NCBI GenBank assembly: GCA_021821585.1
Contig: JAKACF010000003.1
Span: 1-32,827 of the forward strand
Source: Actinomycetes bacterium
GTDB lineage: Bacteria; Actinomycetota; Acidimicrobiia; Acidimicrobiales; Bog-793
Direction: 5' to 3'
Length of the DNA: 32,827 nucleotides
Below are positions 17,624 to 32,827 of the stretch, in pieces. The notes below the pieces were generated by a model, which was not told where the DNA came from, made no database searches, and worked only from the letters and a program-made list of their open reading frames with translations. Made by a program: the position numbers and the translations under genes. The first letter of the stretch is position 1. Each line of letters opens with the position of its first letter.

Positions 17624-18711
17624 CGGTCGAACACCACGACCGAGCGGAGCACCTCGCCCCGCTCCATGCGCCCGAACGCCTCCTCCACCTCCTCGAGCGC
17701 GATCGTCTCGGAGACGAAGCGGTCGAGGTCGAGCCGCCCGTGCAGGTAGTGGTCGATCAGCATCGGGAAGTCCCGGCTCGGCAGGCAGTCGCCGTACCAG
17801 GAGGGCTTCAGGCGTCCGCCCCGTCCGAAGAAGTCGATCATCGGCAGCTCGAGCCGCATCTCGGGCGTCGGCACCCCGACCTGCACCACGGTGCCGGCGA
17901 GGTCTCGGGCGTAGAAGGCCTGCTCGAAGACCTTCGGGTTGCCGACGGCCTCGACGCAGACGTCGGCGCCGACGCCGCTGGTGAGCCGGCGAACCGCCTC
18001 CACCGGATCCTCCCTCGACGCGTCGACGACAGCCGTCGCCCCGAAGGAGGCGGCGAGCTCCAGCTTGCGCGGGTCGAGGTCGACGCCGATGACCGTCGTC
18101 GCCCCGGCGAGGACGGCACCGGCGACAGCCGCGCAGCCCACTCCCCCGCAGCCGAAGACGGCCACCGAGTCGCCCGGAGCGACCTGCCCGGTCCACATGG
18201 CGGCACCGAGCCCGGCCATGACACCGCAGCCGAGCAGGCCGGCGGCCTCGGGGCGGGCGGCAGGGTCCACCGGCGTGCACTGGCCCGCCGCCACGAGGGT
18301 CTTCTCGGCGAAGGCGCCGATGCCGAGGGCGGGCGAGAGGACGGTGCCGTCGGCAAGGGTCATCTTCTGGGAGGCGTTGTGGGTGGCGAAGCAGTACCAC
18401 GGGCGCCCGCGGCGGCATGCCCGGCACTGCCCGCAGACCGCGCGCCAGTTCAACACGACGAAGTCGCCCGCGGCCACCGAGGAGACGTCCGGACCGACGG
18501 CCTCGACGAGGCCGGCCGCCTCGTGTCCGAGCAGGAACGGGAAGTCGTCGTTGATGCCGCCCTCGCGATAGTGCAGGTCCGTGTGGCAGACACCGCACGC
18601 CTGCACCCTGACGAGCGCCTCGCCCGGCCCCGGCTCGGGGACGAGCACCGTCGCCACCTCGACTGGAGCCCCCCGCTTGCGGGCGACGACGCCCTTCACC
18701 TCGTGGACCAC
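17620..18711 (-). CDS. mscR: S-(hydroxymethyl)mycothiol dehydrogenase / mycothiol-dependent formaldehyde dehydrogenase (class III Zn-ADH)
   Basis: GTG 18711 is preceded by AAGGAGG. The product aligns along its length with my recollection of M. tuberculosis Rv2259 (MscR/AdhE2): [91 protein letters not shown] and [13 protein letters not shown]. Confidence 0.85.
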
Positions 18712-18775: not shown

Positions 18776-19582
18776 GTGCCGCAGGACGATGCCCGCCGGA
18801 GGGACCGACACCCGGTCGGGCGGCGGCTCGCGGGACCGGTGCTCGTCGTCGTGGCGGTGCTCGCCTGCTCCTGCTCGAGCGCCGCCAGGTCCTCGGTCGC
18901 GACGACCGCCCGCCCGCCGGCGAGCACCGCCGGCAGCCCGAGCACGACTGCCGCGCCGTCGACGACGGAGCCGCCGCCGAGCTCGACGGTGGCGACGACG
19001 ACCAGCACGAGCACCACCACCACCACGACCACCACCCTTGTGACCTACCGGGCCGGCGACCTGCCCCAGACCGACGTGCTCCCCTCGCCGGCGTCGCGCC
19101 AGTTCCACCAGGAGATGGCGGACCTCTTCGCCGGCATCAAGGAGGACTCCCTCTCGCGGGCGCTCTGGTCCTTCTTCCCCGAGGCGGCCTACGACCGCCT
19201 GAAGTCGATCCCCTACCCGGCCGCCGACTGGCACGACCGCCTCGTCGAGGACTTCTCCCTCGACCTGGCGGCCGCACACCGCTACCTCGGACAGGGGGTC
19301 GGGACGGCACGCCTCCTCTACGTCGCCGTGCCGATGAACGAGGCGGCCTGGATCCCGCCGGGCTACTGCTACAACTCCATCGGGTACTGGCACGTGCCCG
19401 GCTCCCGTCTCGTCTACTCCGAGTCCGGACAGACCCGTTCCATCGGGATCGCGTCCCTCATCTCCTGGAGGGGCCAGTGGTACGTCGTCCACCTCGGCGC
19501 CGTCCTCCGCTCGAGCGCCACCGGGATCGTCGACGACCCGGCGGTCGGCCAGGGGACCTTCGGGCCGCCCGGCGGCTGCTGA
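18776..19582 (+). CDS. Secreted lipoprotein of unknown function with Ser/Thr/Pro-rich linker
   Basis: ORF 18776..19582 (GTG). Signal RRLAGPVLVVVAVLAC with a lipobox Cys. Low-complexity linker ending STSTTTTTTTT. Then a ~170-aa globular region (YRAGDLPQTDVLPSPASRQFHQEMADLF...WRGQWYVVHLGAVL) that I cannot assign to a family. Confidence 0.75.
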   Translation: MPQDDARRRDRHPVGRRLAGPVLVVVAVLACSCSSAARSSVATTARPPASTAGSPSTTAAPSTTEPPPSSTVATTTSTSTTTTTTTTLVTYRAGDLPQTDVLPSPASRQFHQEMADLFAGIKEDSLSRALWSFFPEAAYDRLKSIPYPAADWHDRLVEDFSLDLAAAHRYLGQGVGTARLLYVAVPMNEAAWIPPGYCYNSIGYWHVPGSRLVYSESGQTRSIGIASLISWRGQWYVVHLGAVLRSSATGIVDDPAVGQGTFGPPGGC

Positions 19583-19660
19583 GCCGGGCGCTCCCCGGGG
19601 TCGGTGCAGGCCGGCGGCCGTCCCCCTCCCCGGGAATTGCCCCTGCCGTGGCCCGGCAGA

Positions 19661-19681
19661 TAGACTGAACGTTCAGTCAAG
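19661..19681. promoter_or_regulatory. Operator/promoter element copy 1: TAGACTGAACGTTCAGTCAAG (contains the perfect 16-bp palindrome GACTGAACGTTCAGTC)
   Basis: Read directly. It ends 44 nt upstream of the aminotransferase start (19726). TTGCCC (19637-19642), an 18-nt spacer and TAGACT (19661-19666) resemble a sigma-A type -35/-10 pair, with the -10 embedded in the element. Confidence 0.7.
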
Positions 19682-19725
19682 ACAGCGGCGGCGGCTCCGC
19701 CCGCGCCGCCGGAAGGAGAGCCACC

Positions 19726-21099
19726 GTGGTTGCACGGACCGCGACCCTGCACAGCCTCGACGAGCTCATCGCCGCCGAGGAGCGCGCCTTCGTCGACCGC
19801 CAGCCCCGCTCGGGCGCCCTTCATGCGAGGGCCGTCCGCTCCCTCGCCGGGGGCGTGACGAGCAACTGGCAGATCTCGAGGCCCCAGCCGGTCTTCCTCG
19901 AGCGCGGGGAGGGTTCGCGGATCTGGGACGTCGACGGCAACGAGTACGTCGACCTGCACGGCGGCTACGGCGCCGGGCTCGCCGGCCACGCCCACCCCGC
20001 CGTCGTCGAGGCGGTCCGCCGCCAGGTCGCCCGCGGCACGCACTTCGCCCAGCCGAACGAGGACGCCGTCGCGGTGGCGGAGAACCTCGCCCGGCGCTTC
20101 GGTCTGCCGACATGGCGCTTCATGAACTCGGGCACCGAGGCCACGATGGACGCCGTCCACCTCATGCGGGCCGCCACGGGGCGTGACCTCATGGTGAAGA
20201 TCGAGGGCGGCTACCACGGCCACCACGACTCGGTCCAGGTCTCGGTCATGCCGGAGGCCGACGAGGTCGGCCCCGCCGGGCGACCCCACAGCGTGCCGTC
20301 GAGCAGCGGGGTCCCCTCCGCGATCAGCGCGCTCACCCTCGTCGCCCCCTTCAACGACCTCGACTCGCTGGCGGCCATCCTCGACGAGCATGCCGGCGAG
20401 GTCGCCGGGCTCATCCTCGAGCCGATCATGATGAACGCCGGGATCATCCACCCCGACCCGGGCTACCTCGCCGGCGTGAAGGAGCTCCTGCACGCCCACG
20501 GGGCGCTGCTCACCTTCGACGAGGTGAAGACGGGCCTCACCGTCGGGCCGGGCGGGGTGACGGCGCTGAGCGGGGTCGAGCCCGACCTCGTCTGCCTCGC
20601 CAAGGCGATCGGCGGGGGCCTCATCGCGGCGGCGGTCGGCGGCTCGGCGGAGCTGATGGAGGACGTGGCGGACGGCACCTACGAGATGGTCGGCACCTTC
20701 AACGGCAACCCCCTCTCGATGGCCGCCACCCGGGCGATGCTCGAGCAGGTGGCCACGCCGGACGCCTACGCCAGGCTCGCCACCCTGGCGGGGCGCGTCC
20801 GGGAGGAGCTCTCCTCGACGATCGCCGCCCACGGGCTCACCGCCCATGTCGTCTCGGCCGGGGCGAAGGGCTGCGTGACCTTCTCCCCCGCTCCCGTGCG
20901 GGACTACCGGGACTTCCTCGAGCTCGACGACCGCTTCAACCACCTCCACTTCCTCGTCCAGCACAACGGCGGGGTCTTCCTGCCGCCGTGGGGCAAGACC
21001 GAGCAGTGGCTGATCTCGGTCCAGCACGACGAGGCCGACATGGACCGCTTCCTCGCCAACTTCGAGCGGTTCGCCGCCGGCGTGGCGGCCGCCGCCTGA
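19726..21099 (+). CDS. Class-III PLP-dependent aminotransferase (glutamate-1-semialdehyde aminomutase-like subgroup)
   Basis: GTG 19726 is preceded by GGAAGGAGAG. Family blocks: DVDGNEYVDLHGGYGAGLAGHAHPAVVEAV, RFMNSGTEATMDAVHLMRAATGR, GLILEPIMMNAGII and LLTFDEVKTG (the Lys is the likely PLP site). Confidence 0.85.
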   Translation: MVARTATLHSLDELIAAEERAFVDRQPRSGALHARAVRSLAGGVTSNWQISRPQPVFLERGEGSRIWDVDGNEYVDLHGGYGAGLAGHAHPAVVEAVRRQVARGTHFAQPNEDAVAVAENLARRFGLPTWRFMNSGTEATMDAVHLMRAATGRDLMVKIEGGYHGHHDSVQVSVMPEADEVGPAGRPHSVPSSSGVPSAISALTLVAPFNDLDSLAAILDEHAGEVAGLILEPIMMNAGIIHPDPGYLAGVKELLHAHGALLTFDEVKTGLTVGPGGVTALSGVEPDLVCLAKAIGGGLIAAAVGGSAELMEDVADGTYEMVGTFNGNPLSMAATRAMLEQVATPDAYARLATLAGRVREELSSTIAAHGLTAHVVSAGAKGCVTFSPAPVRDYRDFLELDDRFNHLHFLVQHNGGVFLPPWGKTEQWLISVQHDEADMDRFLANFERFAAGVAAAA

Positions 21100-21140
21100 G
21101 CGACCCCTTGCGCGCCCGCCCTCCCGGCGCGACACTGGGC

Positions 21141-21164
21141 CCGACTGAACGAACGTTCAATCGG
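21141..21164. promoter_or_regulatory. Operator element copy 2, spacing variant: CCGACTGAACGAACGTTCAATCGG
   Basis: Read directly. It is a 24-bp imperfect palindrome (20/24 self-complementary) with the same half-sites, GACTGAAC and GTTCAaTC, separated by an extra GAAC. It ends about 60 nt upstream of the ABC substrate-binding protein start (21224). Confidence 0.55.
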
Positions 21165-21223
21165 ACAACCTTTCGTCTACTGACCCGGGTGCTCGACACC
21201 CACGACGCTGAGAGGACGAGAAG

Positions 21224-22537
21224 GTGCACCACCGCGAAGGCTGGAAGGACGGCAGGCGGGGCGCCGGCGGTGCTCCGCCGGAGGGCGGGGACGCGCCGGA
21301 CACGGGCCGGGGACCGCTCGGCTCGCCGCTCACGAGGCGCAACTTCCTCGCCCTCGGGGCGGGAGCAGCCCTCGGCGGCGTCCTGTCCGCCTGCGGGGGG
21401 AGCGGCTCGGGAAGCGGCGGGACGAGCCCGACCTCGAGCTCCGCGCTGAAGCTCCCCCGGCCGAACCACCCTGTCACCTGGCCGATCGCGGCCGACAACT
21501 CCCCCATCAAGTCCAACCTCGAGCCCGAGAAGAACGCCACCCTGCAGATCTACAACTGGGTCGCCTACATCAACGAGGCCGTGGTCAAGAACTTCTGCAA
21601 GAAGTACGACTGCAACTACTCGATCACGACCTTCAACACGATGTCGGAGGCGATGGCCAAGCTGGCGAGCGGCGAGGTGAACTTCGACGTCTTCTTCCCG
21701 ACCATCGACGTCATCGGCCAGCTGATCGACACCAAGATGATGCGGCCGCTCAACCACAGCTACATCCCGAACATCGCCAACACCTGGCCCGACTACCGCA
21801 ACCCCTTCTACGACGGCGGTTGGCGCTATACCGTCCCCTACTCGATCTACACGACGGGGATGGCCTGGCGGAAGGACAAGGTCTCGCTCGCTCCCGGCTG
21901 GGACATGCCCTGGCAGGCTGCGAAGTACAAGGGCAAGGTGGCGCTCCTCGACGACTACCGGGAGGGCATCAGCCTGGCCCTGTTGAAGCGCGGCATCACG
22001 GACCTCAACACGACGAACAGCGCCCAGATCGCCCAGGCCGGCAAGGACCTCGAGGCGCTCATCCCCCTCGTCGACGTCCGGATCGACAACAACGACTACA
22101 CCGAGATCCCGAACGGCAACACCTGGGTCCACCACGCCTGGTCGGGCGACATCGCCACGGCCGCCTACTACCTCCCGAAGGGGACCAAGATCGACGTCGT
22201 CGGCTACTGGTTCCCCGAGGACGGCAAGGGGCCGGTCGCGAACGACCTCATGAGCGTGCTCAGCACCGGCCAGAACCCCGTGCTCTCGCACCTGTTCCTC
22301 AACTACATGCTCGACGTCCACAACGCCATCGAGAACTACAGCTACGTCGGCTACATGCAGCCTCTCACCGCGGTGACGCCGTCGCTGCTCATCTCCGAGA
22401 AGCTGCTCCCGCCCCAGCTCATCTCGACGGTCGTCCGCCCGTCGGACTTCCGAGCCGGCGTCGAGGAGCTCGAGCTCCCAGTCAGCGCCAACCTGGTCTG
22501 GGAGCAGACCTGGAACTCCTTCGCCAAGGGCCTCTAG
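21224..22537 (+). CDS. ABC transporter substrate-binding lipoprotein, PotD/PotF (polyamine-type) family
   Basis: ORF 21224..22537. Tat-like/lipoprotein signal TRRNFLALGAGAALGGVLSAC. The mature part has the PotD/F-like pattern LQIYNWVAYINEAVVKNFCKKY...FDVFFPT...YTTGMAWRKD. It sits first in an operon with two permeases and a PotA-like ATPase. The start may lie downstream of 21224. Confidence 0.8.
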   Translation: MHHREGWKDGRRGAGGAPPEGGDAPDTGRGPLGSPLTRRNFLALGAGAALGGVLSACGGSGSGSGGTSPTSSSALKLPRPNHPVTWPIAADNSPIKSNLEPEKNATLQIYNWVAYINEAVVKNFCKKYDCNYSITTFNTMSEAMAKLASGEVNFDVFFPTIDVIGQLIDTKMMRPLNHSYIPNIANTWPDYRNPFYDGGWRYTVPYSIYTTGMAWRKDKVSLAPGWDMPWQAAKYKGKVALLDDYREGISLALLKRGITDLNTTNSAQIAQAGKDLEALIPLVDVRIDNNDYTEIPNGNTWVHHAWSGDIATAAYYLPKGTKIDVVGYWFPEDGKGPVANDLMSVLSTGQNPVLSHLFLNYMLDVHNAIENYSYVGYMQPLTAVTPSLLISEKLLPPQLISTVVRPSDFRAGVEELELPVSANLVWEQTWNSFAKGL

Positions 22538-22549
22538 GGCCGACGGACC

Positions 22550-23476
22550 ATGGCGAGCTCCGCCGTCGCTCGGGACCGACGAAGCGGACGGGGGCGCCTG
22601 GCGTGGGCCGCGCTGGCCGCGCCCGGGGCGGCCTGGCTGCTGCTGCTCTTCGTCGTCCCCTTCTACGTCATGCTGACCGTGGCCGCCGGCCAGATCGACC
22701 TGTTCGGGAACGTCGTCCCGGTCTGGGACCCACTCCACTGGTCGGCCGCCAACTTCACGGCCATCTGGCGGGACGTGTCGGGTCCCTCCTCCTACATCGG
22801 CCCACCGGCCATCCGGACGCTCGCCTACACGGCCATGGCGGCGGCCCTCTCGCTGCTCATCGCCTACCCGGTCGCCTACTTCGTGACGCGCTGCGCCGGG
22901 CGGCGAAAGACGCTCTTCCTCGTGCTGCTCGTGGCGCCGTTCTGGGTCAGCTACATGATGCGGATGCTCGCCTGGATCGACCTGCTCGGACAGAACGGCT
23001 TCATCAACAGGTCCTTCGCCTTCTTCCACCTCCCGGGCGGCGGCGTGAACTGGCTCGGCGGCCAGGCAGCCACCGTCATCGCCGGCCTCGTCTACGGCTA
23101 CATCCCCTACCTCATCCTCGTCCTCTACGCCGGGCTCGACCGCATCGACCCGAGCCTGCTCGAGGCGGCGCGCGATCTCGGCTGCTCGCGGACGAAGACC
23201 TTCTTGCGCGTGACCCTCCCTCTCTCCAAGCCGACGATCATCGCCGGCACCTTCATCACCGTCCTGCCGATGCTGGGCGACTACTACACGAACCAGCTGC
23301 TCTCGGCGGCACCGGGGACGACGATGATCGGCAACGTCATCGAGGGCCAGCTCGGCCAGCCCGGTGAACAGGGACAGGGTGCCGCCCTCGCCCTCCTGCT
23401 CCTCGTGGTCCTGCTCGTCCCGATGATCTGGTACGCCGTCTCGACGGCCCGTGCCTCGCGGGAGAACCTCGCGTGA
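22550..23476 (+). CDS. ABC transporter permease (PotB-like)
   Basis: ORF 22550..23476. Multiple TM segments and the EAA loop LLEAARDLGCSRTKTFLRVTLPLSKP. Confidence 0.9.
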   Translation: MASSAVARDRRSGRGRLAWAALAAPGAAWLLLLFVVPFYVMLTVAAGQIDLFGNVVPVWDPLHWSAANFTAIWRDVSGPSSYIGPPAIRTLAYTAMAAALSLLIAYPVAYFVTRCAGRRKTLFLVLLVAPFWVSYMMRMLAWIDLLGQNGFINRSFAFFHLPGGGVNWLGGQAATVIAGLVYGYIPYLILVLYAGLDRIDPSLLEAARDLGCSRTKTFLRVTLPLSKPTIIAGTFITVLPMLGDYYTNQLLSAAPGTTMIGNVIEGQLGQPGEQGQGAALALLLLVVLLVPMIWYAVSTARASRENLA

Positions 23477-24426
23477 GCGTCCTCACCCGGGAGGGTCCCG
23501 ACGAGCTGCTGCCGGGCGCACCCGAGACGAGCCGCCCGCCGGGGGCGCCGCGCCGCCTCCTCCGCCGCAGGCGCCTCTGGCGCCGGCCGGTCTTCCTCGA
23601 GGCCTTCACCTGGCTGTACCTGATCTGGTCGATCGTCCCGATCGGGATCGCCGTGCTCTTCTCGTTCAACAAGGGCCGCTCCCAGTCGGTCTGGCAGGGC
23701 TTCTCGTGGCGGTGGTACGTCACCGACCCCACCAACTCGGTCCTCCACAACCCCGAGCTCCACCAGGCCGTCGTCCAGACCCTCGTGCTCGCTGCCCTGA
23801 CGACGCTCATCACCGTGCCGATCGGGGTCGCCTTCGCCATCGGCATCGACCGGTGGAGGACCCGGACCGCCTCCGGCCTCAACTTCGTCATGATCTTCTC
23901 CTTCGTCGTGCCCGAGCTGCTGCTCGCCATCGCCCTCTTTTTCGTCGTGACCGTCCTGCTGCGCGTCGTCCCGCTCGGGACGCCGGCGGAGGTCGCCGGC
24001 CTCGTGGTCTGGAACCTGAGCTGGCCGGCCATCGTCGTCCGGGCGCGGCTCGTCACCATCGGCCGCGTCTACGAGGAGGCGGCAACGGACCTCGGGGCCT
24101 CGAGGATGCGGGCCATCGGCAGGGTGCTGATGCCGATGCTGCTGCCGGCGATCTTCGCGAGCGCCGTCCTCGTCTTCGCCGGGGTGGTCGACGACTTCGT
24201 GATCGTCGAGCAGCTCTCCTCGACCGCCGCCACCCAGCCGATGTCCGTGCTCATCTACTCGAACGTCCACGGCGGGCTCGCCGGGCCCGCCCTCAACGCC
24301 CTCGCCACGCTCATGCTCGCCTTCTCGCTCGTGGTCGCCGGGCTCGGGTACGTCGCCTACCGCTTCATGACCCGGGGCGAGCGGCGCACCACGACCGAGG
24401 CGCTCACGAGCATCGCAGGGATGTGA
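23473..24426 (+). CDS. ABC transporter permease (PotC-like)
   Basis: GTG 23473 overlaps the upstream stop (GTGA). TM-rich, with the EAA loop YEEAATDLGASRMRAIGRVLMPMLLPA. Confidence 0.9.
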   Translation: MSVLTREGPDELLPGAPETSRPPGAPRRLLRRRRLWRRPVFLEAFTWLYLIWSIVPIGIAVLFSFNKGRSQSVWQGFSWRWYVTDPTNSVLHNPELHQAVVQTLVLAALTTLITVPIGVAFAIGIDRWRTRTASGLNFVMIFSFVVPELLLAIALFFVVTVLLRVVPLGTPAEVAGLVVWNLSWPAIVVRARLVTIGRVYEEAATDLGASRMRAIGRVLMPMLLPAIFASAVLVFAGVVDDFVIVEQLSSTAATQPMSVLIYSNVHGGLAGPALNALATLMLAFSLVVAGLGYVAYRFMTRGERRTTTEALTSIAGM

Positions 24427-24463
24427 GCATGCGTCGGCCCGAGCAGGAAGGAGGTGAGGCCCC

Positions 24464-25606
24464 GTGCCAGGCGGCACCGTCACCCTCAAGAACCTGAGCA
24501 AGCGCTTCGGCGATCACCTCGCCGTCGACCGGATCTCCCTCGAGGTGCGAGCAGGTGAGTTCTTCTCCCTGCTCGGCCCGTCGGGATGCGGGAAGACCAC
24601 GACCCTCAGGATGATCGCCGGCTTCGAGGAGCCGACCGAGGGCGACATCGTCCTCGACGGCGACGAGGTCGGGCACCTCCCTCCGAACCGGCGGCCGGTG
24701 AACACCGTCTTCCAGAGCTACGCCCTCTTCCCCTTCCTCGACGTCGCCGAGAACGTCGCCTTCGGCCTCCGCTACCAGAGCGCGACCAAGGCGGAGGTGC
24801 GCCGGCGCGTCGGGGAGATGCTCGAGCTGGTGCAGCTGTCGGGTTACGAGAAGCGCCGGCCCGGCCAGCTGTCGGGGGGTCAGCAGCAACGCGTCGCCCT
24901 CGCCCGTGCCCTCGTGCTCAACCCCTCGGTGCTCCTCCTCGACGAGCCCCTCGGGGCGCTCGACGCGAAGCTCCGCCGGGCGCTGCAGATCGAGCTCAAG
25001 TCAATCCAGGAGCGCGTCGGGATCACCTTCCTCTACGTCACCCACGACCAGGAGGAGGCGCTCACCATGTCGGACCGGATCGCGGTCATGTCGAACGGGC
25101 ACATCGCCCAGCTCGGCTCGCCGCGGGAGGTCTACGAGGAGCCGGCGGACGCCTACGTGGCGGACTTCCTCGGCGTCTCGAACCTCATGGACGGGACGGT
25201 CACCGGGGCCGGCTCGGCCTCACGGCCCTGCGAGGTGGCCGTCGGGGAGTTCCGCCTCGAGGCGGCCTGCGGTGCCGTCGGGGCCACGGGGGCCGTGAAG
25301 CTCGCCATCCGGCCCGAGCGCATCTCGCTGCTCGGCTTCGACAAGCCCGGGCCGAACCGGCTCCCCGGCATGGTCGAGCGGACCGTCTTCCTCGGCAACG
25401 CCACCCAGGTGGTCGTCCGCCTGGCGGCCGGCATGGCGCTGCAGGCGCTCGTGCGCAACGACGACGGCGCCGCCGCCTTCGAGCCGGGCCTCCCGGTCCA
25501 GGTGGACCTTGCGCGAGAGGCCCTCAGAGTCCTCGAGGGCGGCGGGGTGTCGGTGGCGGCGATCCGGGAGGAGACGCTCGGCGACGTCGCCGGGCTGCTC
25601 GTCTGA
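24464..25606 (+). CDS. ABC transporter ATP-binding protein (PotA-like, with C-terminal TOBE-type domain)
   Basis: GTG 24464 is preceded by GGAAGGAGGTGA. Walker A GPSGCGKTT, Q-loop, signature LSGGQQQRVALARAL, Walker B LLLDEPLGALD and H-loop THDQEEA. Confidence 0.92.
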   Translation: MPGGTVTLKNLSKRFGDHLAVDRISLEVRAGEFFSLLGPSGCGKTTTLRMIAGFEEPTEGDIVLDGDEVGHLPPNRRPVNTVFQSYALFPFLDVAENVAFGLRYQSATKAEVRRRVGEMLELVQLSGYEKRRPGQLSGGQQQRVALARALVLNPSVLLLDEPLGALDAKLRRALQIELKSIQERVGITFLYVTHDQEEALTMSDRIAVMSNGHIAQLGSPREVYEEPADAYVADFLGVSNLMDGTVTGAGSASRPCEVAVGEFRLEAACGAVGATGAVKLAIRPERISLLGFDKPGPNRLPGMVERTVFLGNATQVVVRLAAGMALQALVRNDDGAAAFEPGLPVQVDLAREALRVLEGGGVSVAAIREETLGDVAGLLV

Positions 25607-25648
25607 GCGCCCGACCCACCGCCTCGCTGCCGGGCGGGCCGGCGAGCC

Positions 25649-26338
25649 TCAGCGGCGCCCCGCCCGCTTGCGGACGCGTCGGCCGGAGGGGACGAAGCCG
25701 AGCTGCTGGGCGGCCACGGCGATGGCGAGCTCGAAGGCGCGCTGGGCGTCGACGACGGGGTCCTCGAGCACGATCTGGATCGCCAGCCCGTCCAGGAGGG
25801 CCGTGAAGCCGACGGCGAAGTCGTCCACCGAGACCTCCTGGAATTCTCCGGCCTGCATGCCGTCGCGGACGATCTGGCGGATCGTCTCGCGGAAGCGCTC
25901 GTCGGACTCCTCCCGGACGCGGCGCACCTCCTCGTTCCGCAGCGCCTGGGCCCACAGGTCGAGCCAGAGCGCCCATGGCTCCTCCACCGACCCGGGCACC
26001 GCCGGCAGGCAGCTCATCGAGACGACCTCCTCGAGCCGCCCCGCCGCAGAGGGGATCTGGCCCGTCTGCCGGGCCATCTCGGCGTACCAGCCCTCCTCGG
26101 CCTGCCGCATCGCCTCGGCGAGCAGCCGGTCCTTGGTCTTGAAGTAGTAGATGACGAGGGCGGGGCTCACCCCGGCCCGCTCGGAGACGTCCGCGATCCG
26201 GGTCTCGGGAAAACCGCGTTCCATGATGACGTCGATCGCGGCCGAGAGGATCTGGGTCCGCCGGGCGTCGGGCAGGCCGTCGAGGCTGGTCTCCGATGTG
26301 GTGGTCACCCGCAACCGTCCTTCCTTCTCGGCGGACAC
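25649..26338 (-). CDS. TetR/AcrR-family transcriptional regulator
   Basis: ORF 25649..26338. N-terminal HTH RRTQILSAAIDVIMERGFPETRIADVSERAGVSPALVIYYFKTKDRLLAEAM. It is divergent from the flavoprotein operon, with operator copy 3 in the 96-bp intergenic region. Confidence 0.9.
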   Translation of the reverse strand: MSAEKEGRLRVTTTSETSLDGLPDARRTQILSAAIDVIMERGFPETRIADVSERAGVSPALVIYYFKTKDRLLAEAMRQAEEGWYAEMARQTGQIPSAAGRLEEVVSMSCLPAVPGSVEEPWALWLDLWAQALRNEEVRRVREESDERFRETIRQIVRDGMQAGEFQEVSVDDFAVGFTALLDGLAIQIVLEDPVVDAQRAFELAIAVAAQQLGFVPSGRRVRKRAGRR

Positions 26339-26386
26339 GGCCCTCTCCGTCGCGCACGGGCCTTGTCCGACTGTAACAGCGCTGGA

Positions 26387-26407
26387 TAGACTGAACAGTC
26401 AGTCAAT
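26387..26407. promoter_or_regulatory. Operator/promoter element copy 3: TAGACTGAACAGTCAGTCAAT
   Basis: Read directly in the TetR/flavoprotein divergent intergenic region. It ends 27 nt before ATG 26435. TTGTCC (26363-26368), an 18-nt spacer and TAGACT (26387-26392) have the same geometry as copy 1. Confidence 0.7.
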
Positions 26408-26434
26408 CACGGGAGCCGACGAACGGAGGACGGG

Positions 26435-28069
26435 ATGCCAGCGGACTACGACGCCGTCGTCGTCGGAGGAGGCCACAACGGGCTCGTCGCCGGGGCGTAC
26501 CTGGCGAGGGCCGGGATGCGGACCGTCGTGCTCGAGTCCCGCCACAAGACCGGCGGGGCGGCGACGACCGACTCGCCCTGGCCGGAGGCGCCCGAGTTCA
26601 AGGTGACGCGCCTGTCCTATGTCATGAGCCTCATGCCGAGGACCATCCTCGAGGACCTCTCCCTCGAGCGGCACGGCTACAAGGTCTACCCCATGGGCCC
26701 CTACTACCAGGCCTTCCCCGACGGCCGTTCGATCCAGATCTGGGCCGACGACTCACGGCGCAACTACGAGCAGATCGCCAAGTTCTCCCGGCGCGACGCC
26801 GAGGCGATGCCGCGCTGGGACGCCTGGCTCGGTGGCCTCGCCGACGTGCTCGGGCCGATGCTGCTCACGGTGCCGCCGAAGCTCGGCTCGAAGCGGCCGG
26901 GCGACCTCGCCGGCCTGCTGCGAATGGCCTGGCGCCACCGGGGCCTCGACGTCCGGAGGATCGGCGACGTCACGCGCCTCATGACGATGTCGATCGCCGA
27001 CCTGCTCGACGACTGGTTCGAGACCTGGCAGGTGAAGGCGCCGATCGCCGTCAACGGGGTCATCGGCACCTGGGCCGGCCCCTACGAGCCGGGCACCGCC
27101 TACGTCATGGCGCACCACTCGATCGGCGACGTCGGCGACGGCCACCTCGGCAGCTGGGGCTACCCCGAGGGCGGGATGGGCGCCGTCGCCGACGCCATCG
27201 CCCGCGCCGCGAGGACCTTCGGCGTCGAGATCCGCACCGACGCCCGGGTCGCCCGCACCCTCGTCCGCAACGGTGCCGCCACGGGAGTCGCGCTCGACAA
27301 CGGCGACGAGCTGCACGCCCCGGTCGTCGTGACGAGCCTCCATCCCCGGACCGCCTTCCTCGAGCACCTCGCCCGCGAGGAGCTGCCGGACGACTTCGTC
27401 AACGACATCGAGCACTGGAAGACGCGTAGCGGCGTCGTGAAGATCAACCTCGCCCTGTCCGAGCTGCCCGACTTCATCGCCGATCCCGGCACGAACCTGC
27501 AGTCCCACCACACGGGCTCGGTGGAGATGGCGCCCTCCATGGAGTACATGGAGCGGGCCTTCCTCGACGCGAGGGAGGGACGGGCCGCCGAGCGCCCCTT
27601 CAGCGACTCGGTCATCCCGAGCACCTTCGACAGGACGCTCTGCCCGGAGGGGACCCACGTCATGTCGCTGTTCAGTCAGTGGGTGCCGGCCGACTGGGCC
27701 GACGAGCCGCACGAGGTGGAGCTCGAGGCCTACGCCGACCGCCTCATCGCGCAGTACGACGAGCTCGCCCCGAACTTCAAGGCGTCCATCCTGCACCGCG
27801 ACATCGTCGGCCCGCACGAGATGCAGCGGGACTACGGCCTCGTCGGCGGGAACATCTTCCACGGCGAGCTCTCGGTCGAGCAGCTCTTCCACATGCGGCC
27901 GGCCCCGGGGTTCGCCGACTACCGCACGCCGGTGCGCGGGCTGTACTACGCGAGCTCGGCCACCCATGCCGGCGGCGGGGTCTGCGGCATCCCCGGCTAC
28001 CAGGCGGCAAAGGCGGCCCTGTCCGACCGGCGCTCGGCAGGGCGGCGCGCACGGCTCCGGGCCAAATGA
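26435..28069 (+). CDS. FAD-dependent oxidoreductase, phytoene-desaturase (CrtI)/PYROXD2-like family
   Basis: ATG 26435 is preceded by GGAGGA. Rossmann dinucleotide motif YDAVVVGGGHNGLVAGAYLARAG...VLESRHKTGGAA. The overall size (544 aa) and blocks such as SYVMSLMPRTILEDLSLERHGY and QIAKFSRRDAEAMPRW resemble my recollection of PYROXD2-type proteins. Confidence 0.8.
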   Translation: MPADYDAVVVGGGHNGLVAGAYLARAGMRTVVLESRHKTGGAATTDSPWPEAPEFKVTRLSYVMSLMPRTILEDLSLERHGYKVYPMGPYYQAFPDGRSIQIWADDSRRNYEQIAKFSRRDAEAMPRWDAWLGGLADVLGPMLLTVPPKLGSKRPGDLAGLLRMAWRHRGLDVRRIGDVTRLMTMSIADLLDDWFETWQVKAPIAVNGVIGTWAGPYEPGTAYVMAHHSIGDVGDGHLGSWGYPEGGMGAVADAIARAARTFGVEIRTDARVARTLVRNGAATGVALDNGDELHAPVVVTSLHPRTAFLEHLAREELPDDFVNDIEHWKTRSGVVKINLALSELPDFIADPGTNLQSHHTGSVEMAPSMEYMERAFLDAREGRAAERPFSDSVIPSTFDRTLCPEGTHVMSLFSQWVPADWADEPHEVELEAYADRLIAQYDELAPNFKASILHRDIVGPHEMQRDYGLVGGNIFHGELSVEQLFHMRPAPGFADYRTPVRGLYYASSATHAGGGVCGIPGYQAAKAALSDRRSAGRRARLRAK

Positions 28070-30168
28070 GCCTCGAGCGGATGCTCGAGGCCCGTTCGGT
28101 CGCCCTCGTCGGCGCCACCCCCCGACCCGGCTCGCTCGGGATGCGGGCCCTCACCGAGCTCGAGCGCAGTCCCGGCCGGCCGTCCATCCACCTCGTCAAC
28201 CCTGGCCGCGCCGGGACCGCGATCGCCGGTCGCTCCGTCGTCGCCTCTCTCGGGGAGGTGGCGGACGAGGTGGACCTCGTCCTGGCTGCGGTCGGGGACG
28301 CCAGCCTCGAAGCGGTGCTGACCGACGCCGCTCGATGCGGGGCGGCGGGCGCCGTCGTCTTCGGCAGCGCCGTCGACCCGGTCACGCCCGGGGACTCCAG
28401 GGCCTTCCGGGCCCGCCTCGCCGCCATCGCCCGGGACGCCGGCATGGCGCTGTGCGGTGGGGGCTGCATGGGCTTTGTCTCACAGGGCCTGCGGGCCATC
28501 GGCTACCTGGAGCGCGACCCCCTGGCGAGAGGACCGGTGGCGCTCGTCACCCACTCCGGCTCGGCGTTCTCGGCGCTGCTTCGCGCCGAGCGACCCTTCG
28601 CCTGGTCGCTGGCGGTCTCCTCCGGCCAGGAGCTCGTCACGACGACGGCGGACTACCTCGAGTACGCCCTCGGGCTGCCCGAGACCGGCCTCGTCGCCCT
28701 CGTCGCCGAGACGCTGCGGGACGTGCCGCGGCTTCGCGCCGCCCTCGAGGCGGCGGCCGAACGGGACATCCCGGTGGTCGCCCTGCCCGTCGGCACCTCG
28801 GAGAGCGGCCGGGCGATGGTGGCGGCGCACTCGGGCGCGCTCGCCGGTGGAGCCGCCGCCTTCGAGGCCCTCTTCCGCGCCCACGGGGTGGTGCAGGTCG
28901 CCGATCTCGCCGAGCTGTGCGACACCGTCGAGCTCCTCCTCGCCGCCCGCCGGCACCGTGGCTCGACCCGACCGGGAGGAGCGCTGGCGGCGGTGCTCGA
29001 CTCGGGAGCCGAGCGCGCGCTGCTCGTCGACGTGGCCGACGAGCTCGGTGTCCCCTTCGCCGCGGTGTCGCCGGCGACCACCGCACGGCTCGAGGAGCTC
29101 CTCGACCCCGGGCTGCCGGCCACCAACCCGCTCGACGTCTGGGGGTCCGGGCGCTCGACCGAGGAGCTGTTCACCGAGACCCTCCTCGCCCTGTCGAGGG
29201 ACGCCTCCGTCTCGGTCGTCGCCCTGGCGGTCGACCTCGTCCCCGAATTCGACGGCGACGACTCCTACCGGAGCGCCGCCCTGGCGGTGGCCGCCCGGTC
29301 CGAGGTCCCGGTCTGCGTCCTCTCCCACGTCCCGAGCGCGCTCGACCGGGAGGCGGCGGCGCGCCTGCGGGCTGCCGGCGTGGCCGTCCTCGAAGGGACG
29401 CGCCCGGGCCTCGCCGCCCTCGGGCACCTCCTCTCCCGGGCCGAGGGGTCGCCGGGGGAACGGGGCCGGACGCCCGGGCCGGACGCCGACCGCCGGGAGC
29501 GCTGGCGGGCCCGGCTCGCCGACGGCCCGCTCCGCCCCGACGAGGCGGTCGCGATGCTCGCCGACTACGGCATCGCCTCGCCGGCGACACGGGTCGTCGG
29601 CGACGAGAGGGCCGCCGTGGCGGCGGCCGCCGAGATCGGCTTCCCCGTCGCCCTGAAGACGGCCGCGGGGGACCTCGCCCACAAGTCCGAGGTCGGCGGC
29701 GTCGTGCTCGGCCTGCGCGACGCGGACGGAGTGGCCGCCGCCTACGGCGACCTCTGTCGGCGGCTCGGGCCGGCGGCGGTCGTGTGCGCGATGGCCCCCG
29801 AGGGCGTCGAGCTCTCCCTCGGCGTCCTCCGCGACCCCCTCGTCGGCCCGCTCGTCGTCGTCGGCGCCGGGGGGGTCCTCGTCGAGCTGATCGCCGACCG
29901 CGCCGTCGCCCTCCCGCCCGTCGGGCCCGAGGCAGCCGCCACGATGGTGTCGGGGCTCCGCCTCGCCCGCCTGCTCGAGGGCTTCCGGGGCGGGCCGCCT
30001 GCGGACCTCGGCGCCGTCGCGAGGGCGATCACCTCGATGTCGGCGCTCGCCACCGAGCTCGGGGCCGACCTCTCCGCCGTCGAGGTCAACCCGCTGTCGT
30101 GCGGCCCCTCCGGTGCCCTCGCCCTCGACGTCCTCGTCGAGGGGCGCTGTGCTCAGAAGATGACGTAG
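28066..30168 (+). CDS. ADP-forming (NDP-forming) acyl-CoA synthetase family protein (CoA-binding + succinyl-CoA-ligase-like + ATP-grasp domains)
   Basis: ATG 28066 overlaps the upstream stop (ATGA). In-frame part of track ORF 27679..30168 from MSLERMLEARSVALVGAT (CoA-binding start). Also VTHSGSAFSALL and a C-terminal ATP-grasp-like region, LADYGIASPATRVV...IGFPVALKTAAGDLAHKSEVGGVVLGL. Confidence 0.8.
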   Translation: MSLERMLEARSVALVGATPRPGSLGMRALTELERSPGRPSIHLVNPGRAGTAIAGRSVVASLGEVADEVDLVLAAVGDASLEAVLTDAARCGAAGAVVFGSAVDPVTPGDSRAFRARLAAIARDAGMALCGGGCMGFVSQGLRAIGYLERDPLARGPVALVTHSGSAFSALLRAERPFAWSLAVSSGQELVTTTADYLEYALGLPETGLVALVAETLRDVPRLRAALEAAAERDIPVVALPVGTSESGRAMVAAHSGALAGGAAAFEALFRAHGVVQVADLAELCDTVELLLAARRHRGSTRPGGALAAVLDSGAERALLVDVADELGVPFAAVSPATTARLEELLDPGLPATNPLDVWGSGRSTEELFTETLLALSRDASVSVVALAVDLVPEFDGDDSYRSAALAVAARSEVPVCVLSHVPSALDREAAARLRAAGVAVLEGTRPGLAALGHLLSRAEGSPGERGRTPGPDADRRERWRARLADGPLRPDEAVAMLADYGIASPATRVVGDERAAVAAAAEIGFPVALKTAAGDLAHKSEVGGVVLGLRDADGVAAAYGDLCRRLGPAAVVCAMAPEGVELSLGVLRDPLVGPLVVVGAGGVLVELIADRAVALPPVGPEAAATMVSGLRLARLLEGFRGGPPADLGAVARAITSMSALATELGADLSAVEVNPLSCGPSGALALDVLVEGRCAQKMT

Positions 30169-30509
30169 ACCTTCCGCAGCGTCTCGTGGATCTCCCACGT
30201 GCCGGTCCAGCCGACCGGGAAGACGACGTTGTCACCCGGGCCGATCTCGACGGGCTCCCCGTCGGTCGGCGTCACCGTCATCGACCCGGAGAGGACGTGG
30301 ATGAACTCGTTCTCCTCCTGCACCCAGTACGACGGCCCCGGCGTGCACTCCCAGATGCCCATCTCGGCCCCGTCGTGGGACCAGGCCGTGAGCCCGGAGG
30401 CGGCCATCGCCGGCCCCGTCGCCTCCTCGAGCGGCCCCCAGTCCTCGAGCGCCGCCGCGGCGGCCTCGTGCACGAGGGCGAGGGGCGGGGCGATGCGTGC
30501 GTCGGTCAT
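30153..30509 (-). CDS. Cupin-fold protein, DUF861/Cupin_3 (EutQ-like)
   Basis: ATG 30509 is preceded by GGAGAAAGGA. Product: MTDARIAPP...MGIWECTPGPSYWVQEENEFIHVLSGSMTVTPTDGEPVEIGPGDNVVFPVGWTGTWEIHETLRKVYVIF, the pattern I associate with DUF861. The 45-codon extension in the track ORF is Arg/Pro-rich with no RBS. Confidence 0.8.
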   Translation of the reverse strand: MTDARIAPPLALVHEAAAAALEDWGPLEEATGPAMAASGLTAWSHDGAEMGIWECTPGPSYWVQEENEFIHVLSGSMTVTPTDGEPVEIGPGDNVVFPVGWTGTWEIHETLRKVYVIF

Positions 30510-30659
30510 GACGGTGCGGTCCTTTCTCCGGTGAAGGCGTGCCACGAGCTCGGCGCGGGTCGTCCGACCGGAGCCGACGTGTGACGGGTTTCCGCCCACC
30601 GCCGGTGCCGGTCGCTTCGCCGCCCTGGCCGGGCCCGTGCGCACGGACGAACCTTGGCA

Positions 30660-30680
30660 TAAACTGAACAGTCAGTCAAT
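30660..30680. promoter_or_regulatory. Operator/promoter element copy 4: TAAACTGAACAGTCAGTCAAT
   Basis: Read directly. Positions 30659-30681 match 26386-26408 at 22 of 23 bases. It ends 16 nt before the acyl-CoA dehydrogenase ATG (30697), with the RBS GAGGAG in between. TAAACT fits a -10 (TAnnnT). Confidence 0.7.
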
Positions 30681-30696
30681 CGCTGAGGAGCGCCCC

Positions 30697-31863
30697 ATGT
30701 ACCAGCTGACGCCTGCGGACGAGTCGATCCGGGACCGCGCGCGGTCCTTCGTCGGCGACCTCATCCCCTACGAGGAGCAGGCGGAGGCCAACGAGGGCAG
30801 GCTGCCGGACGGCGTGGCCGAGAAGATGAAGGCCCGGGCGCGACAGGAGGGCCTGCTCGCCACCAACATGCCGGCGGACCTCGGGGGCGGCGGCTGCTCG
30901 ATGCTCCAGCAGGTCCTCGTGCAGGAACAGGTGGGGCGCGTGACCAACACCCTCGCGTGGATGCTGTCGACCCCCCCCGCCTGGTGGCCGGCGGTGGCGA
31001 CCGAGGAGCAGCGGCGCCGCTACCTCGTCCCGACGGTGGCCGGCGAGATGTCCGAGTGCTACGCCATCACCGAGGAGGCGGCCGGCTCCGACGTCGACGG
31101 CATCGAGGCGACGGCGAGGCGGGAGGGCGACGGGTACGTCCTCGACGGCGTGAAGTGGCACGTCACCTCCTTCAACGAGGCGGCCTACGCCTTCTTCCAG
31201 GCCCGCCTCGCCGACGGGCCCCACGCCGGCGAGCACGCCATGTTCGTGGTCGACCTCCCCTCCCCCGGCGTCCGGGTGGTGCGCACCCCGGCCTACTCCC
31301 ACACGACCACCCACCACCATCCGATCGTCGCCTTCGAGGGCGTGCGCGTGCCCGCCGGCAGCCTCGTCGGCCAGGAGGGCGCCGGCATGACCTTCGCCTA
31401 CGAGTGGTTCCGCTTCGAGCGCTTCATGGTGGCAGCCCGCTGCCTCGGGGCCGGCGAGCGCCTCGTCGAGGAGGCGACCCGCTTCGCGAACGAGCGCGTC
31501 GTCGGCGGGCGGCCGATCGCCGAGTACCAGCTGGTGCAGGCGATGCTGGCTGACAGCGCGACCGAGCTCTTCGCCGCCCGCTCGATGCTCTACGAGGCGG
31601 CCCGCGGGGTCGACGAGGGCCGTGACGTGAAGATCCAGCACGCCCAGGCGTCGATGGCCAAGCTCTACTGCTCGGAGATGGCCAACCGGGTGGCCGACCG
31701 GACGGTGCAGATCTTCGGGGGCCGGGGCTTCATGCGCGAGAACGTCGCCGAGCGCTTCTACCGGGAGCTCAGGGTGGAGCGGATCTGGGAGGGCACGAGC
31801 GAGCTCCAGCGGCTCATCGTCGCCGGCCAGCTCGCCAAGCGGGGCGTCCGCTCCCTCGTGTGA
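30697..31863 (+). CDS. Acyl-CoA dehydrogenase
   Basis: ATG 30697 (RBS GAGGAG). In-frame part of track ORF 30637..31863 from MYQLTPADESIRDRARSF. ACAD blocks: CYAITEEAAGSDVDGIEATA, DGYVLDGVKWHVTS, RPIAEYQLVQAMLAD and QIFGGRGFMRENVAERFYRELRVERIWEGTSELQ. Confidence 0.9.
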   Translation: MYQLTPADESIRDRARSFVGDLIPYEEQAEANEGRLPDGVAEKMKARARQEGLLATNMPADLGGGGCSMLQQVLVQEQVGRVTNTLAWMLSTPPAWWPAVATEEQRRRYLVPTVAGEMSECYAITEEAAGSDVDGIEATARREGDGYVLDGVKWHVTSFNEAAYAFFQARLADGPHAGEHAMFVVDLPSPGVRVVRTPAYSHTTTHHHPIVAFEGVRVPAGSLVGQEGAGMTFAYEWFRFERFMVAARCLGAGERLVEEATRFANERVVGGRPIAEYQLVQAMLADSATELFAARSMLYEAARGVDEGRDVKIQHAQASMAKLYCSEMANRVADRTVQIFGGRGFMRENVAERFYRELRVERIWEGTSELQRLIVAGQLAKRGVRSLV

Positions 31864-31866
31864 GGC

Positions 31867-32827
31867 TCAACCGGCCGAGCTGAACTCGGCCGTGCGGACC
31901 GGCTCGCCGAGGTAACCGCGGGCCACCATCGTGACGAACTGGTACACGCCGTCCTCCTGGCTCGAGAGCGGCCCGGGGAGGGCGCCCTTGGACGACAGCC
32001 CGCGCTGGACCGACTCGCAGGCGAGCCAGTCCTGACGGTTCGTGATGTCCCAGAAGTCGACGGCGAAGGCGGGGTCGAAGTCCTCGCGGGCGGCGTCCTC
32101 GGGGGCGAAGTGCCACTCGCAGACGATCTTCGTCCGGTCCGGGCCGAGCGGGGTGAGGACGTGGGTCATCACGTAGTCGGGGTGCAGGCTGACGAGCACG
32201 TTCGGGAACAGTCCGATGTAGTCGACGATGCGCCGCCGCCGCTCGTCGAGGCCACGCAGCGGAGAGGCACCCGTCGTGGTGTGGAGCGACATCGTGGCGT
32301 AGCCCTCCCGGATGTCCATCCAGCCCGCCACCCAGGCGCCCCGGCCGGGGTGGTAGTAGTTCTCGCCGCTGCGGGGCGGGCTGGCGGCGCACAGCTCGGG
32401 GTGGATGACCGGGCAGTGGTAGCACTCCTGGTAGTTCTCGGTCAGGATCTTCCAGTTGGCCGCCACGACGTACTCGTGGCGGCCCCGTGTCACCAGCCGT
32501 TCCGGCTCGTAGGGGGCGACGATCTCCTCCAGGCCGGCCACGTGCTCGGAGAAGGGCCCGGCGGCGCCTGCGGCGTCGACGAAGAGCAGGCCGTGCCACT
32601 CGGCGAGGGGGAGCTCGACGAGGCCGAACTCGAGTGGGTCGAAGTGGTCGTCCCCGTCGAAGTCGGGCGCCTTGCGCAGCCTGCCGTCCAGGCGGTACGA
32701 CCAGGCGTGGTAGGGGCAGAGCACGATCGGCCGGTTGACGGTGGCCGCCCCGCACGCCAACAGCTCATGGCCGCGGTGGCGGCAGGCGTTGACGAAGGCC
32801 CTCGCCCGGCCCTCCTGGTCCCGCATG
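31867..32827 (-). CDS. Rieske [2Fe-2S] non-haem-iron oxygenase alpha subunit (GbcA/Stc2/CntA-like); partial, N-terminus beyond the window end
   Basis: ORF 31867..32826. Rieske ligands appear in CRHRGHELL...CPYHAWSY. A catalytic-domain His pair appears in NYQECYHCPVIHPEL. The Met at 32826 is almost certainly internal, because a Rieske domain normally begins about 40-60 aa before the CxH. Confidence 0.85.
   Translation of the reverse strand, partial: MRDQEGRARAFVNACRHRGHELLACGAATVNRPIVLCPYHAWSYRLDGRLRKAPDFDGDDHFDPLEFGLVELPLAEWHGLLFVDAAGAAGPFSEHVAGLEEIVAPYEPERLVTRGRHEYVVAANWKILTENYQECYHCPVIHPELCAASPPRSGENYYHPGRGAWVAGWMDIREGYATMSLHTTTGASPLRGLDERRRRIVDYIGLFPNVLVSLHPDYVMTHVLTPLGPDRTKIVCEWHFAPEDAAREDFDPAFAVDFWDITNRQDWLACESVQRGLSSKGALPGPLSSQEDGVYQFVTMVARGYLGEPVRTAEFSSAG

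Follow-up and report, generated by a model that had tools for sequence, protein, structure and literature searches.

We describe here a palindromic DNA element that recurs upstream of the genes of an island in a 32,827-nucleotide stretch of DNA (the window; positions 1 to 32,827 of contig JAKACF010000003.1, GenBank assembly GCA_021821585.1) from an Actinomycetes bacterium of the order Acidimicrobiales. The elements are probably the operators of a BetI-like repressor of the TetR family encoded in the same island at 25649-26338, a reading to which we give a probability of about 0.8 and which draws on sequence comparisons among related genomes. The arrangement is kept across soil Actinomycetota, and as a bacterial gene switch it is of an ordinary type. 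A preliminary description of the window, prepared from its letters and a list of its open reading frames (ORFs), had proposed a TetR regulon from an element of about 21 bp found at four positions, and the comparative evidence presented below supports that interpretation of the sites.

Four elements in the window

The four 21-bp sequences quoted in the preliminary description (S1 to S4, Table 1) were all found in the window exactly as given, and they share the core GACTGAAC-NN-TCAGTC. The gap to the next forward start codon is 44 nt for S1, 62 for S2, 27 for S3 and 16 for S4, as in the range of 16 to 62 nt first reported, and Shine-Dalgarno-like sequences lie downstream of S1, S3 and S4. Our operator model is a 20-bp palindrome, T(A/T)GACTGAAC-NN-TCAGTCAA. 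S1 opens with TAGACT, a putative -10 hexamer, and contains a palindrome that is perfect over 16 bp.

When the window was scanned for the pattern GACTGAACNNTCAGTC with up to three mismatches, matches were found at the four sites only; they amount to 9 strand-matches against 2.15 +/- 1.47 expected, a number reached in none of 100 shuffles. We then used a matrix of 20 columns, trained on 241 orthologous sites from other genomes, to score the window. The matrix gave S1, S3 and S4 the high scores listed in Table 1, and S2 received 10.2 and 9.6 bits, one score per register; the best score outside the four sites was -15.6 bits, in keeping with the earlier statement that the coding regions of the window contain no full copy, and the maximum over 100 shuffled windows was 6.4 bits. 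The sites are real and non-random. S1, S3 and S4 are canonical, and S2 is weak though significantly motif-like. The preliminary description had counted S2 among its four copies, but it is not a full one: two overlapping registers, 21141-21160 on the forward strand and 21145-21164 on the reverse, lie 4 bp apart with three mismatches each. S2 reads as the palindrome with 4 bp duplicated at its centre and a single mismatch in a half-site. What stands of that claim is its likeness to the motif, at about 10 bits against the shuffle maximum of 6.4. Generic repeat finding in the window returned GC-rich coding noise only.

A BetI-like regulator and a betI-box-like palindrome

The Pfam/NCBIfam gene map confirms that the TetR-family protein is the only DNA-binding regulator of the island, as had been proposed. 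It carries a TetR-type helix-turn-helix (HTH; PF00440, residues 30-76, 48.7 bits against a cutoff of 24) and a BetI-type C-terminal ligand domain (PF13977, TetR_C_6, 76.3 bits against a cutoff of 27). Its best NCBIfam family is BetI, with 103.2 bits for TIGR03384 (cutoff 201.3) and 91.6 bits for NF001978 (cutoff 118), and a full-length alignment with E. coli BetI gives 26% identity. Conservation is lacking in the first ~23 residues, and for this reason the true start may lie further downstream. Among 72 orthologues, the mean frequency of the top residue is 0.87 in the HTH and 0.72 in the ligand domain, and this stronger conservation of the HTH fits an essentially invariant operator.

The predicted operator also resembles that of BetI. 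The E. coli betI-betT spacer holds TTGATTGGACGTTCAATA (ATTGGAC|GTTCAAT), and footprinting of BetI1 in Ruegeria pomeroyi gave the box ATTGACG|CGTCAAT, described by its authors as matching the betI-box consensus (PMC12442346). The motif found here, ACTGAAC|GTTCAGT, has the architecture and the centre of a betI box. S1 differs once per half from an idealised ATTGAAC|GTTCAAT, for which the right half of the E. coli box served as the model, and the tetR-proximal sites of mycobacteria and Nocardioides have the ATTGAAC half.

Conservation in related loci and in gene-blind scans

A search with the TetR protein, utilizing one genome per species, gave 80 loci with 55-93% identity, all of them from uncultured Actinomycetota (Acidimicrobiales, Streptosporangiaceae and Solirubrobacterales). 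In 79 of these 80 orthologous loci tetR has the exact core a short way 5' of it, usually in the spacer that separates tetR from the divergent flavoprotein gene. In the window this spacer is 96 bp long and contains S3, which is the TetR-type layout of a palindrome in the regulator's own divergent promoter region and bears out what the preliminary description had said of this site. The other site classes are those of the aminotransferase, of the spacer between the acyl-CoA dehydrogenase (ACAD) and the DAO or cupin genes, of the importer binding protein (a degenerate class) and of the Rieske oxygenase (a variant class). Orthologues of the aminotransferase have an upstream site of at least 25 bits in 42 of 52 loci and the ACAD spacer has a site in 38 of 46, while the binding-protein sites are the weakest and least conserved class overall among the orthologous loci. 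Conservation of the motif upstream of orthologues, a check that the preliminary description had called for, is found in these 80 related loci.

Across 1.45 Mb of related loci we counted 254 sites of at least 12 bits. Most are outside called ORFs (163) or within 120 nt of an ORF 5' end (74), and the 17 remaining sites belong all the same to the promoter site classes (tetR/flavoprotein, ACAD, Rieske, aminotransferase); we attribute their position inside ORFs to over-extended or merged crude ORF calls. The preliminary description had named a spread of the motif through genes and genomes as evidence that would count against a regulon. An exact scan for TAGACTGAACNNTCAGTCAA (18 fixed bases) over the 185,579 species genomes of a 596-Gb collection, performed without reference to genes, gave at least 119 stretches against ~17 expected by chance, with Actinomycetota only among the matches listed, and in 80 of 80 loci inspected the site lies before an ACAD/DAO, flavoprotein/TetR or aminotransferase orthologue, at the promoters of this cluster. 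The motif is therefore not scattered over genomes or inside genes. The matches include the cultured strains Mycolicibacterium chubuense DSM 44219, Mycobacterium spp., Nocardioides koreensis JCM 16022 and N. agariphilus KCTC 19276, whose TetR proteins are just 44-48% identical to that of the window.

A fifth site on the start codon of the Rieske gene

The regulon as first described had tied the units together, which the comparisons support, and its extent had been drawn too narrowly, since the Rieske oxygenase gene, with its promoter just outside the window, also belongs to it. Contigs 99.85% identical to the window (L202 among them) run past its right end and hold a fifth predicted operator there. 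It is of a Rieske-type variant, TTGACTGT-ATG-RTCAGTC (L202 3258-3282), whose central ATG is the annotated Rieske start codon and whose right half encodes Rieske codons 2-4 (Val/Ile-Ser-Gln). A TAGGAT hexamer (-10) ends 7 nt before the A of that ATG, and because of this distance the Rieske mRNA is probably leaderless, which would put +1 at the centre of the operator. A scan for the variant, again blind to genes, gave at least 119 stretches, and 73 of the 80 that were inspected sit on the start of a Rieske orthologue; the other 7 (four in non-actinobacterial genomes, without a Rieske gene) are consistent in number with chance.

In several metagenome-assembled genomes the Rieske gene is found on a contig other than that of tetR, or amid housekeeping genes, which indicates that the factor acts in trans. 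A trans-acting factor need not be encoded nearby, so the sites could be operators of another transcription factor encoded elsewhere, with the local TetR either a co-regulated passenger or a regulator of its divergent neighbour only. We hold this to be improbable, because tetR is the sole regulator with a consistent place in the cluster, its own divergent promoter has the site that is strongest and best conserved, and its HTH is highly conserved alongside an invariant operator; the combination of a BetI-like protein with a palindrome like the betI box (PMC12442346) is an independent match. The local TetR is for us the likely owner of the sites.

Two other genes were observed around the Rieske gene. 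A wax-ester-synthase/DGAT gene (L202 1769-3223) lies directly upstream of it, a placement that recurs in several related loci, and a second gene of this kind is found in the window at 11867-14514 (+) beside a PorA-like gene; neither has an associated operator. On its 3' side, 19 loci with the variant motif (L206, L210, L229, L241 and others) have a gene of ~165 amino acids that is glutathione-peroxidase-like as judged by eye from its sequence.

Promoter overlap and proposed mechanism

The orientation of the site relative to the downstream gene is fixed: the left flank is nearly always TA, which gives TAGACT or TAAACT, and the right flank is AA. Both hexamers fit TANNNT, the -10 pattern of actinobacteria. 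A TTGnC element is conserved 17-18 nt 5' of this hexamer in the promoters of the flavoprotein, aminotransferase and ACAD genes; an element of this type is present at a like distance in 53 orthologous aminotransferase sites, and 69 orthologous flavoprotein sites have CTTGTc 17 nt upstream. Toward the binding-protein gene and tetR the site reads TTGAC-first.

Such features raise the question of whether the element is a shared promoter only, meaning a -10 and discriminator recognized by RNA polymerase or an alternative sigma factor, with no repressor site. The fit of TAGACT to TANNNT, the -35 conserved at the right distance and the fixed orientation would all agree with it, but we find it highly improbable. 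Conservation extends 14 bp past the -10 with the two-fold symmetry GACTGA-N4-TCAGTC and AA/TT flanks, which no sigma-factor element explains, the palindrome occupies other promoter positions as well (it reads TTGAC-first toward tetR and toward the binding-protein gene, and at the Rieske gene its centre is the start codon), and the cluster is without a sigma factor gene. Action at the RNA level, through a hairpin in the 5' untranslated region that attenuates transcription or binds a protein, can be pictured from the S1 core, which can make a 6-bp stem with a 4-nt loop, and from the position of the sites shortly 5' of start codons. Its likelihood is close to negligible, given that both arms are invariant and not covarying across phylogenetically distant genomes, that the predicted transcription start falls inside the site and would leave the left arm untranscribed, and that the site works both ways round in divergent regions; the window gave no match to any Rfam family.

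Our preferred reading, operators of the BetI-like TetR protein, leads to the following model. The sequences of the sites, their significance, their conservation, placement and orientation in other genomes, the family of the regulator and the likeness of the operator to a betI box are observed; physical binding, repression and not activation, autoregulation, the start sites, the effector and the substrate are all inferred. A repressor dimer would bind the 20-bp palindrome, whose left flank (TAGACT/TAAACT) would be the -10 of a housekeeping-sigma promoter at the aminotransferase, flavoprotein/CoA-synthetase and ACAD genes, with TTGnC as the -35 located 17-18 nt upstream. The bound repressor would cover the -10 and the transcription start and block initiation, an occlusion geometry, and the location of S3 in the tetR promoter region would result in autoregulation. 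A small-molecule effector, for which the imported amine or an intermediate of the pathway is the likeliest candidate, would free the repressor, and its release would turn on the importer, the aminotransferase, the CrtI-like flavoprotein with the ADP-forming acyl-CoA synthetase, the cupin, the ACAD and the Rieske oxygenase.

Several points weigh against this reading. In the window S4 is without a convincing -35, and the tetR promoter could not be defined. A scan of 19400-31000 for promoters of the E. coli consensus found none, which we ascribe to the G+C content of the genome, and the promoter assignments are consequently taken from conservation and from nothing else; terminator-like matches in the same scan were uninformative. 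The half-sites of S2 are wrongly spaced for binding by a canonical dimer, and a detectable site is missing from 20 of 53 orthologous binding-protein genes; for these two reasons control of the importer is the weakest link of the regulon. Finally, the 80 anchor loci were picked by means of TetR, so that co-occurrence with TetR there is by construction, a bias in sampling that the gene-blind scans, which use strict consensus patterns, offset only in part.

Genes of the island and the window

The gene map (Table 1) was derived from codon-position G+C and from Pfam/NCBIfam searches; the G+C content of the window is ~72%.

Table 1. Predicted operators, promoter elements and genes of the island, in window coordinates unless another contig is named
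Feature	Position	Strand	Sequence, score or basis
S1, quoted 21 bp	19661-19681		TAGACTGAACGTTCAGTCAAG; read in window
S2, quoted 21 bp	21141-21161		CCGACTGAACGAACGTTCAAT; read in window
S3, quoted 21 bp	26387-26407		TAGACTGAACAGTCAGTCAAT; read in window
S4, quoted 21 bp	30660-30680		TAAACTGAACAGTCAGTCAAT; read in window
S1 operator (predicted)	19661..19680	+	TAGACTGAACGTTCAGTCAA; 41.6 bits
S2 degenerate operator (putative)	21141..21164	.	GACT[GAAC][GAAC]GTTCAATC
S3 operator (predicted)	26387..26406	+	TAGACTGAACAGTCAGTCAA; 41.8 bits; in tetR/flavoprotein divergent spacer of 96 bp
S4 operator (predicted)	30660..30679	+	TAAACTGAACAGTCAGTCAA; 41.1 bits; between cupin (-) and ACAD (+) genes
Fifth operator (predicted)	L202 3263-3282; ~230 nt beyond window end, equivalent to ~33057-33076		TTGACTGTATGGTCAGTCAG; 28.8 bits
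-35-like hexamer, aminotransferase promoter	19637..19642	+	TTGCCC; 18 nt, then TAGACT at 19661 (S1)
-35-like hexamer, flavoprotein promoter	26363..26368	+	TTGTCC; 18 nt, then TAGACT at 26387 (S3)
Class-III aminotransferase, glutamate-1-semialdehyde-aminomutase / beta-transaminase-like subgroup	19726..21099	+	Pfam PF00202, 216 bits
PotD/PotF-like ABC importer operon, four genes	21224..25606	+	Pfam; NCBIfam PotD/PotF weak
Importer binding protein	21224-22537	+	
Importer permeases	22550-23476 and 23473-24426	+	
Importer ATPase with TOBE domain	24464-25606	+	
TetR-family regulator, BetI-type C-terminal domain	25649..26338	-	PF00440 and PF13977
FAD-dependent oxidoreductase, phytoene-desaturase / CrtO-like (CrtI-like) family	26435..28069	+	Weak amine-oxidase domain
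ADP-forming (NDP-forming) acyl-CoA synthetase	28066..30168	+	CoA_binding_2, Succ_CoA_lig and ATP-grasp_5
EutQ-like cupin	30153..30509	-	PF05899; 118 aa per gene call on near-identical contig L202
Acyl-CoA dehydrogenase (ACAD), 388 aa	30697..31863	+	Pfam ACAD N, M and C domains
Rieske oxygenase alpha subunit, GbcA-like	31867..32827	-	Truncated by window end

The aminotransferase scores under all NCBIfam equivalog cutoffs and its nearest solved structures are glutamate-1-semialdehyde aminomutases and beta-transaminases, while those of the importer bind spermidine or putrescine. The preliminary description had placed the sites before four separate units; the sites stand, and the aminotransferase and importer genes may form a single operon that has a site within it. 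The whole importer block, S2 included (window 21081-25520), is absent from a locus (L001) that is ~91% identical in the flanks, and there the stop codons of the aminotransferase and tetR genes abut. The importer block has a G+C of 0.67-0.70, under that of its surroundings. Since the importer is present at this position in most orthologous loci, its loss in the L001 lineage seems likelier than a gain in the lineage of the window.

The flavoprotein reaches 238 bits for CrtO, whose cutoff is 1000, and matches solved CrtI structures weakly. Its stop codon is overlapped by the start of the CoA synthetase gene. The earlier assignment of the latter as an acyl-CoA synthetase is right as to CoA synthetase and lacked the precise type, which by its domains is ADP-forming (NDP-forming); the best NCBIfam match, far under its cutoff, is 3-hydroxypropionate-CoA ligase. 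The open frame of the cupin gene reaches 30644, and because this gene is on the minus strand S4 is in a divergent spacer. A site before the ACAD gene had been correctly described, and the divergent cupin gene had been missed. The ACAD gene starts with the ATG at 30697 and its product has acryloyl-CoA reductase AcrC and crotonobetainyl-CoA dehydrogenase as best NCBIfam matches, all under cutoffs. In most orthologous loci the cupin gene is separated from the ACAD-side operator by a gene for a sarcosine-oxidase-like DAO flavoprotein (~409 aa); this DAO gene is absent from the window lineage and from L001, with no remnant detectable in window 30510-30696.

Left of the island the window contains unrelated genes, among them those for a PAS/GAF histidine kinase, MFS transporters, a SpoIIE phosphatase and WS/DGAT. 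Directly 5' of S1, on the strand of the aminotransferase, is a Ser/Thr/Pro-rich ORF (18776-19582, +) that has a sub-threshold mucin-like Pfam match only; it is kept in L001 and L005 and is just 180 aa long in the gene call of the near-identical contig. A mycothiol-dependent formaldehyde dehydrogenase is encoded at 17620-18711 (-; 642 bits against a cutoff of 513). This gene has no operator here, and a strong one is found within 250 nt of its start in 6 of 15 related loci. Orthologues of the formaldehyde dehydrogenase and of a metallo-beta-lactamase-fold hydrolase (11086-11727, -) are adjacent in some related loci. An ORF of 507 aa (14253-15776, -) has good codon-position G+C and an orthologue in L001; it overlaps an alternative frame at 14618-15322 and has no match in Pfam.

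Predicted pathway and significance

The conserved members of the regulon are the importer, the aminotransferase, the ADP-forming CoA synthetase, the ACAD, the DAO flavoprotein, the cupin and the Rieske oxygenase, usually with the CrtI-like flavoprotein. Some frequent neighbours exceed curated cutoffs and sometimes share the site: an aldehyde dehydrogenase of the aminobutyraldehyde-dehydrogenase type (636 bits against 615), an NAD-dependent formate dehydrogenase (694 bits against a cutoff of 329) and the mycothiol-dependent formaldehyde dehydrogenase scored above. From these members and from the aldehyde, formate and formaldehyde dehydrogenase neighbours, we tentatively suggest that the regulon serves to take up and break down an amino compound that is polyamine-like or N-methylated. 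Naming the substrate from the best family matches (3-hydroxypropionate-CoA ligase, acryloyl-CoA reductase/CaiA, GbcA, PotD/F) was rejected, as all are far under their curated cutoffs, and with core-enzyme matches this low the routes of beta-alanine, betaine, gamma-butyrobetaine, glutarate and polyamines are all candidates.

It is possible, though less likely than not, that this is an undescribed catabolic route for such a compound, widespread in soil Actinomycetota and under a BetI-family sensor with a new effector. In this route, uptake by the PotD-like importer would be followed by transamination and, in some genomes, by aminobutyraldehyde-type oxidation. N-demethylation could be carried out by the GbcA-like Rieske oxygenase and the sarcosine-oxidase-like flavoprotein, with formaldehyde and formate dehydrogenases nearby, and an unusual CoA branch would comprise the ADP-forming acyl-CoA synthetase, the ACAD, the CrtI-like flavoprotein and the cupin. 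The BetI-family sensor would be in control, with an operator written across the start codon of the leaderless Rieske gene. A search of the full-text literature with the motif strings found no paper, and none that joins TGAACGTTCA with BetI; nothing relevant came up in full text on a BetI-like, polyamine or TetR system of actinobacteria with this gene set.

The concept is that of a standard TetR switch, and its interest comes from its breadth in soil Actinomycetota, from the pathway that it delimits and from its testability in cultured strains. Genes on both strands that appeared loosely arranged and hypothetically catabolic can be read as one defined regulon with a precise operator model that overlaps the -10. 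Because the regulon occurs in hundreds of uncultured Actinomycetota of peat and soil and also in cultivable Mycolicibacterium and Nocardioides, the prediction is directly testable. The operator is in addition a handle for unlinked members, by which the Rieske oxygenase was found, and it may offer a way to learn which substrate and which effector belong to an uncharacterised pathway of amine degradation. If the reading is true, it would provide a new pair of BetI-family sensor and operator, with potential as a biosensor.

Comparison with known systems

The closest solved relatives of the TetR protein are uncharacterised TetR proteins from structural genomics (4ICH, 4KWA, 4JNN and 4NEL; 88 bits over residues 17-190), whose entry names give no function, operator or ligand and whose similarity does not imply orthology.

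KstR and KstR2 of mycobacteria are TetR repressors that bind a short palindrome before many catabolic operons, with ACAD genes among their targets, and the KstR regulon, which serves steroid catabolism, was defined via conservation of its motif across actinobacterial genomes. The system described here is like them in being a multi-operon catabolic TetR regulon with a repeated short palindrome and ACAD targets, and differs in its motif, in the family of the C-terminal domain and in gene content. A KstR-type operator was rejected on half-site spacing, as judged from the KstR motif, TnnAACnnGTTnnA.

BetI is the choline-responsive TetR repressor of the bet genes in E. coli, S. meliloti, P. aeruginosa and Ruegeria pomeroyi (BetI1). 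Our system differs from it in that the regulator scores under both BetI equivalog cutoffs and that neither the window nor the conserved cluster contains betA, betB or betT. The regulon is also larger, with 4-6 promoters that include unlinked ones, the host group is Actinomycetota, and the chemistry is that of an aminotransferase, an ADP-forming CoA synthetase, an ACAD, a CrtI-like flavoprotein, DAO, a cupin and a GbcA-like Rieske oxygenase. The likeness begins with the protein, in which a TetR_N HTH is joined to a PF13977 domain and for which BetI is the best-scoring curated family. It extends to the layout, with a regulator divergent from a regulated gene and an operator in the common spacer that overlaps promoter elements, and to the architecture of the operator, a 14-16 bp palindrome with the half-site A(C/T)TGAAC, to be compared with ATTGGAC/ATTGAAC in the E. 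coli spacer and with ATTGACG in the R. pomeroyi box (PMC12442346). Membership in the BetI family proper fails on score cutoffs and gene context, and in its way of working the system appears to be like BetI.

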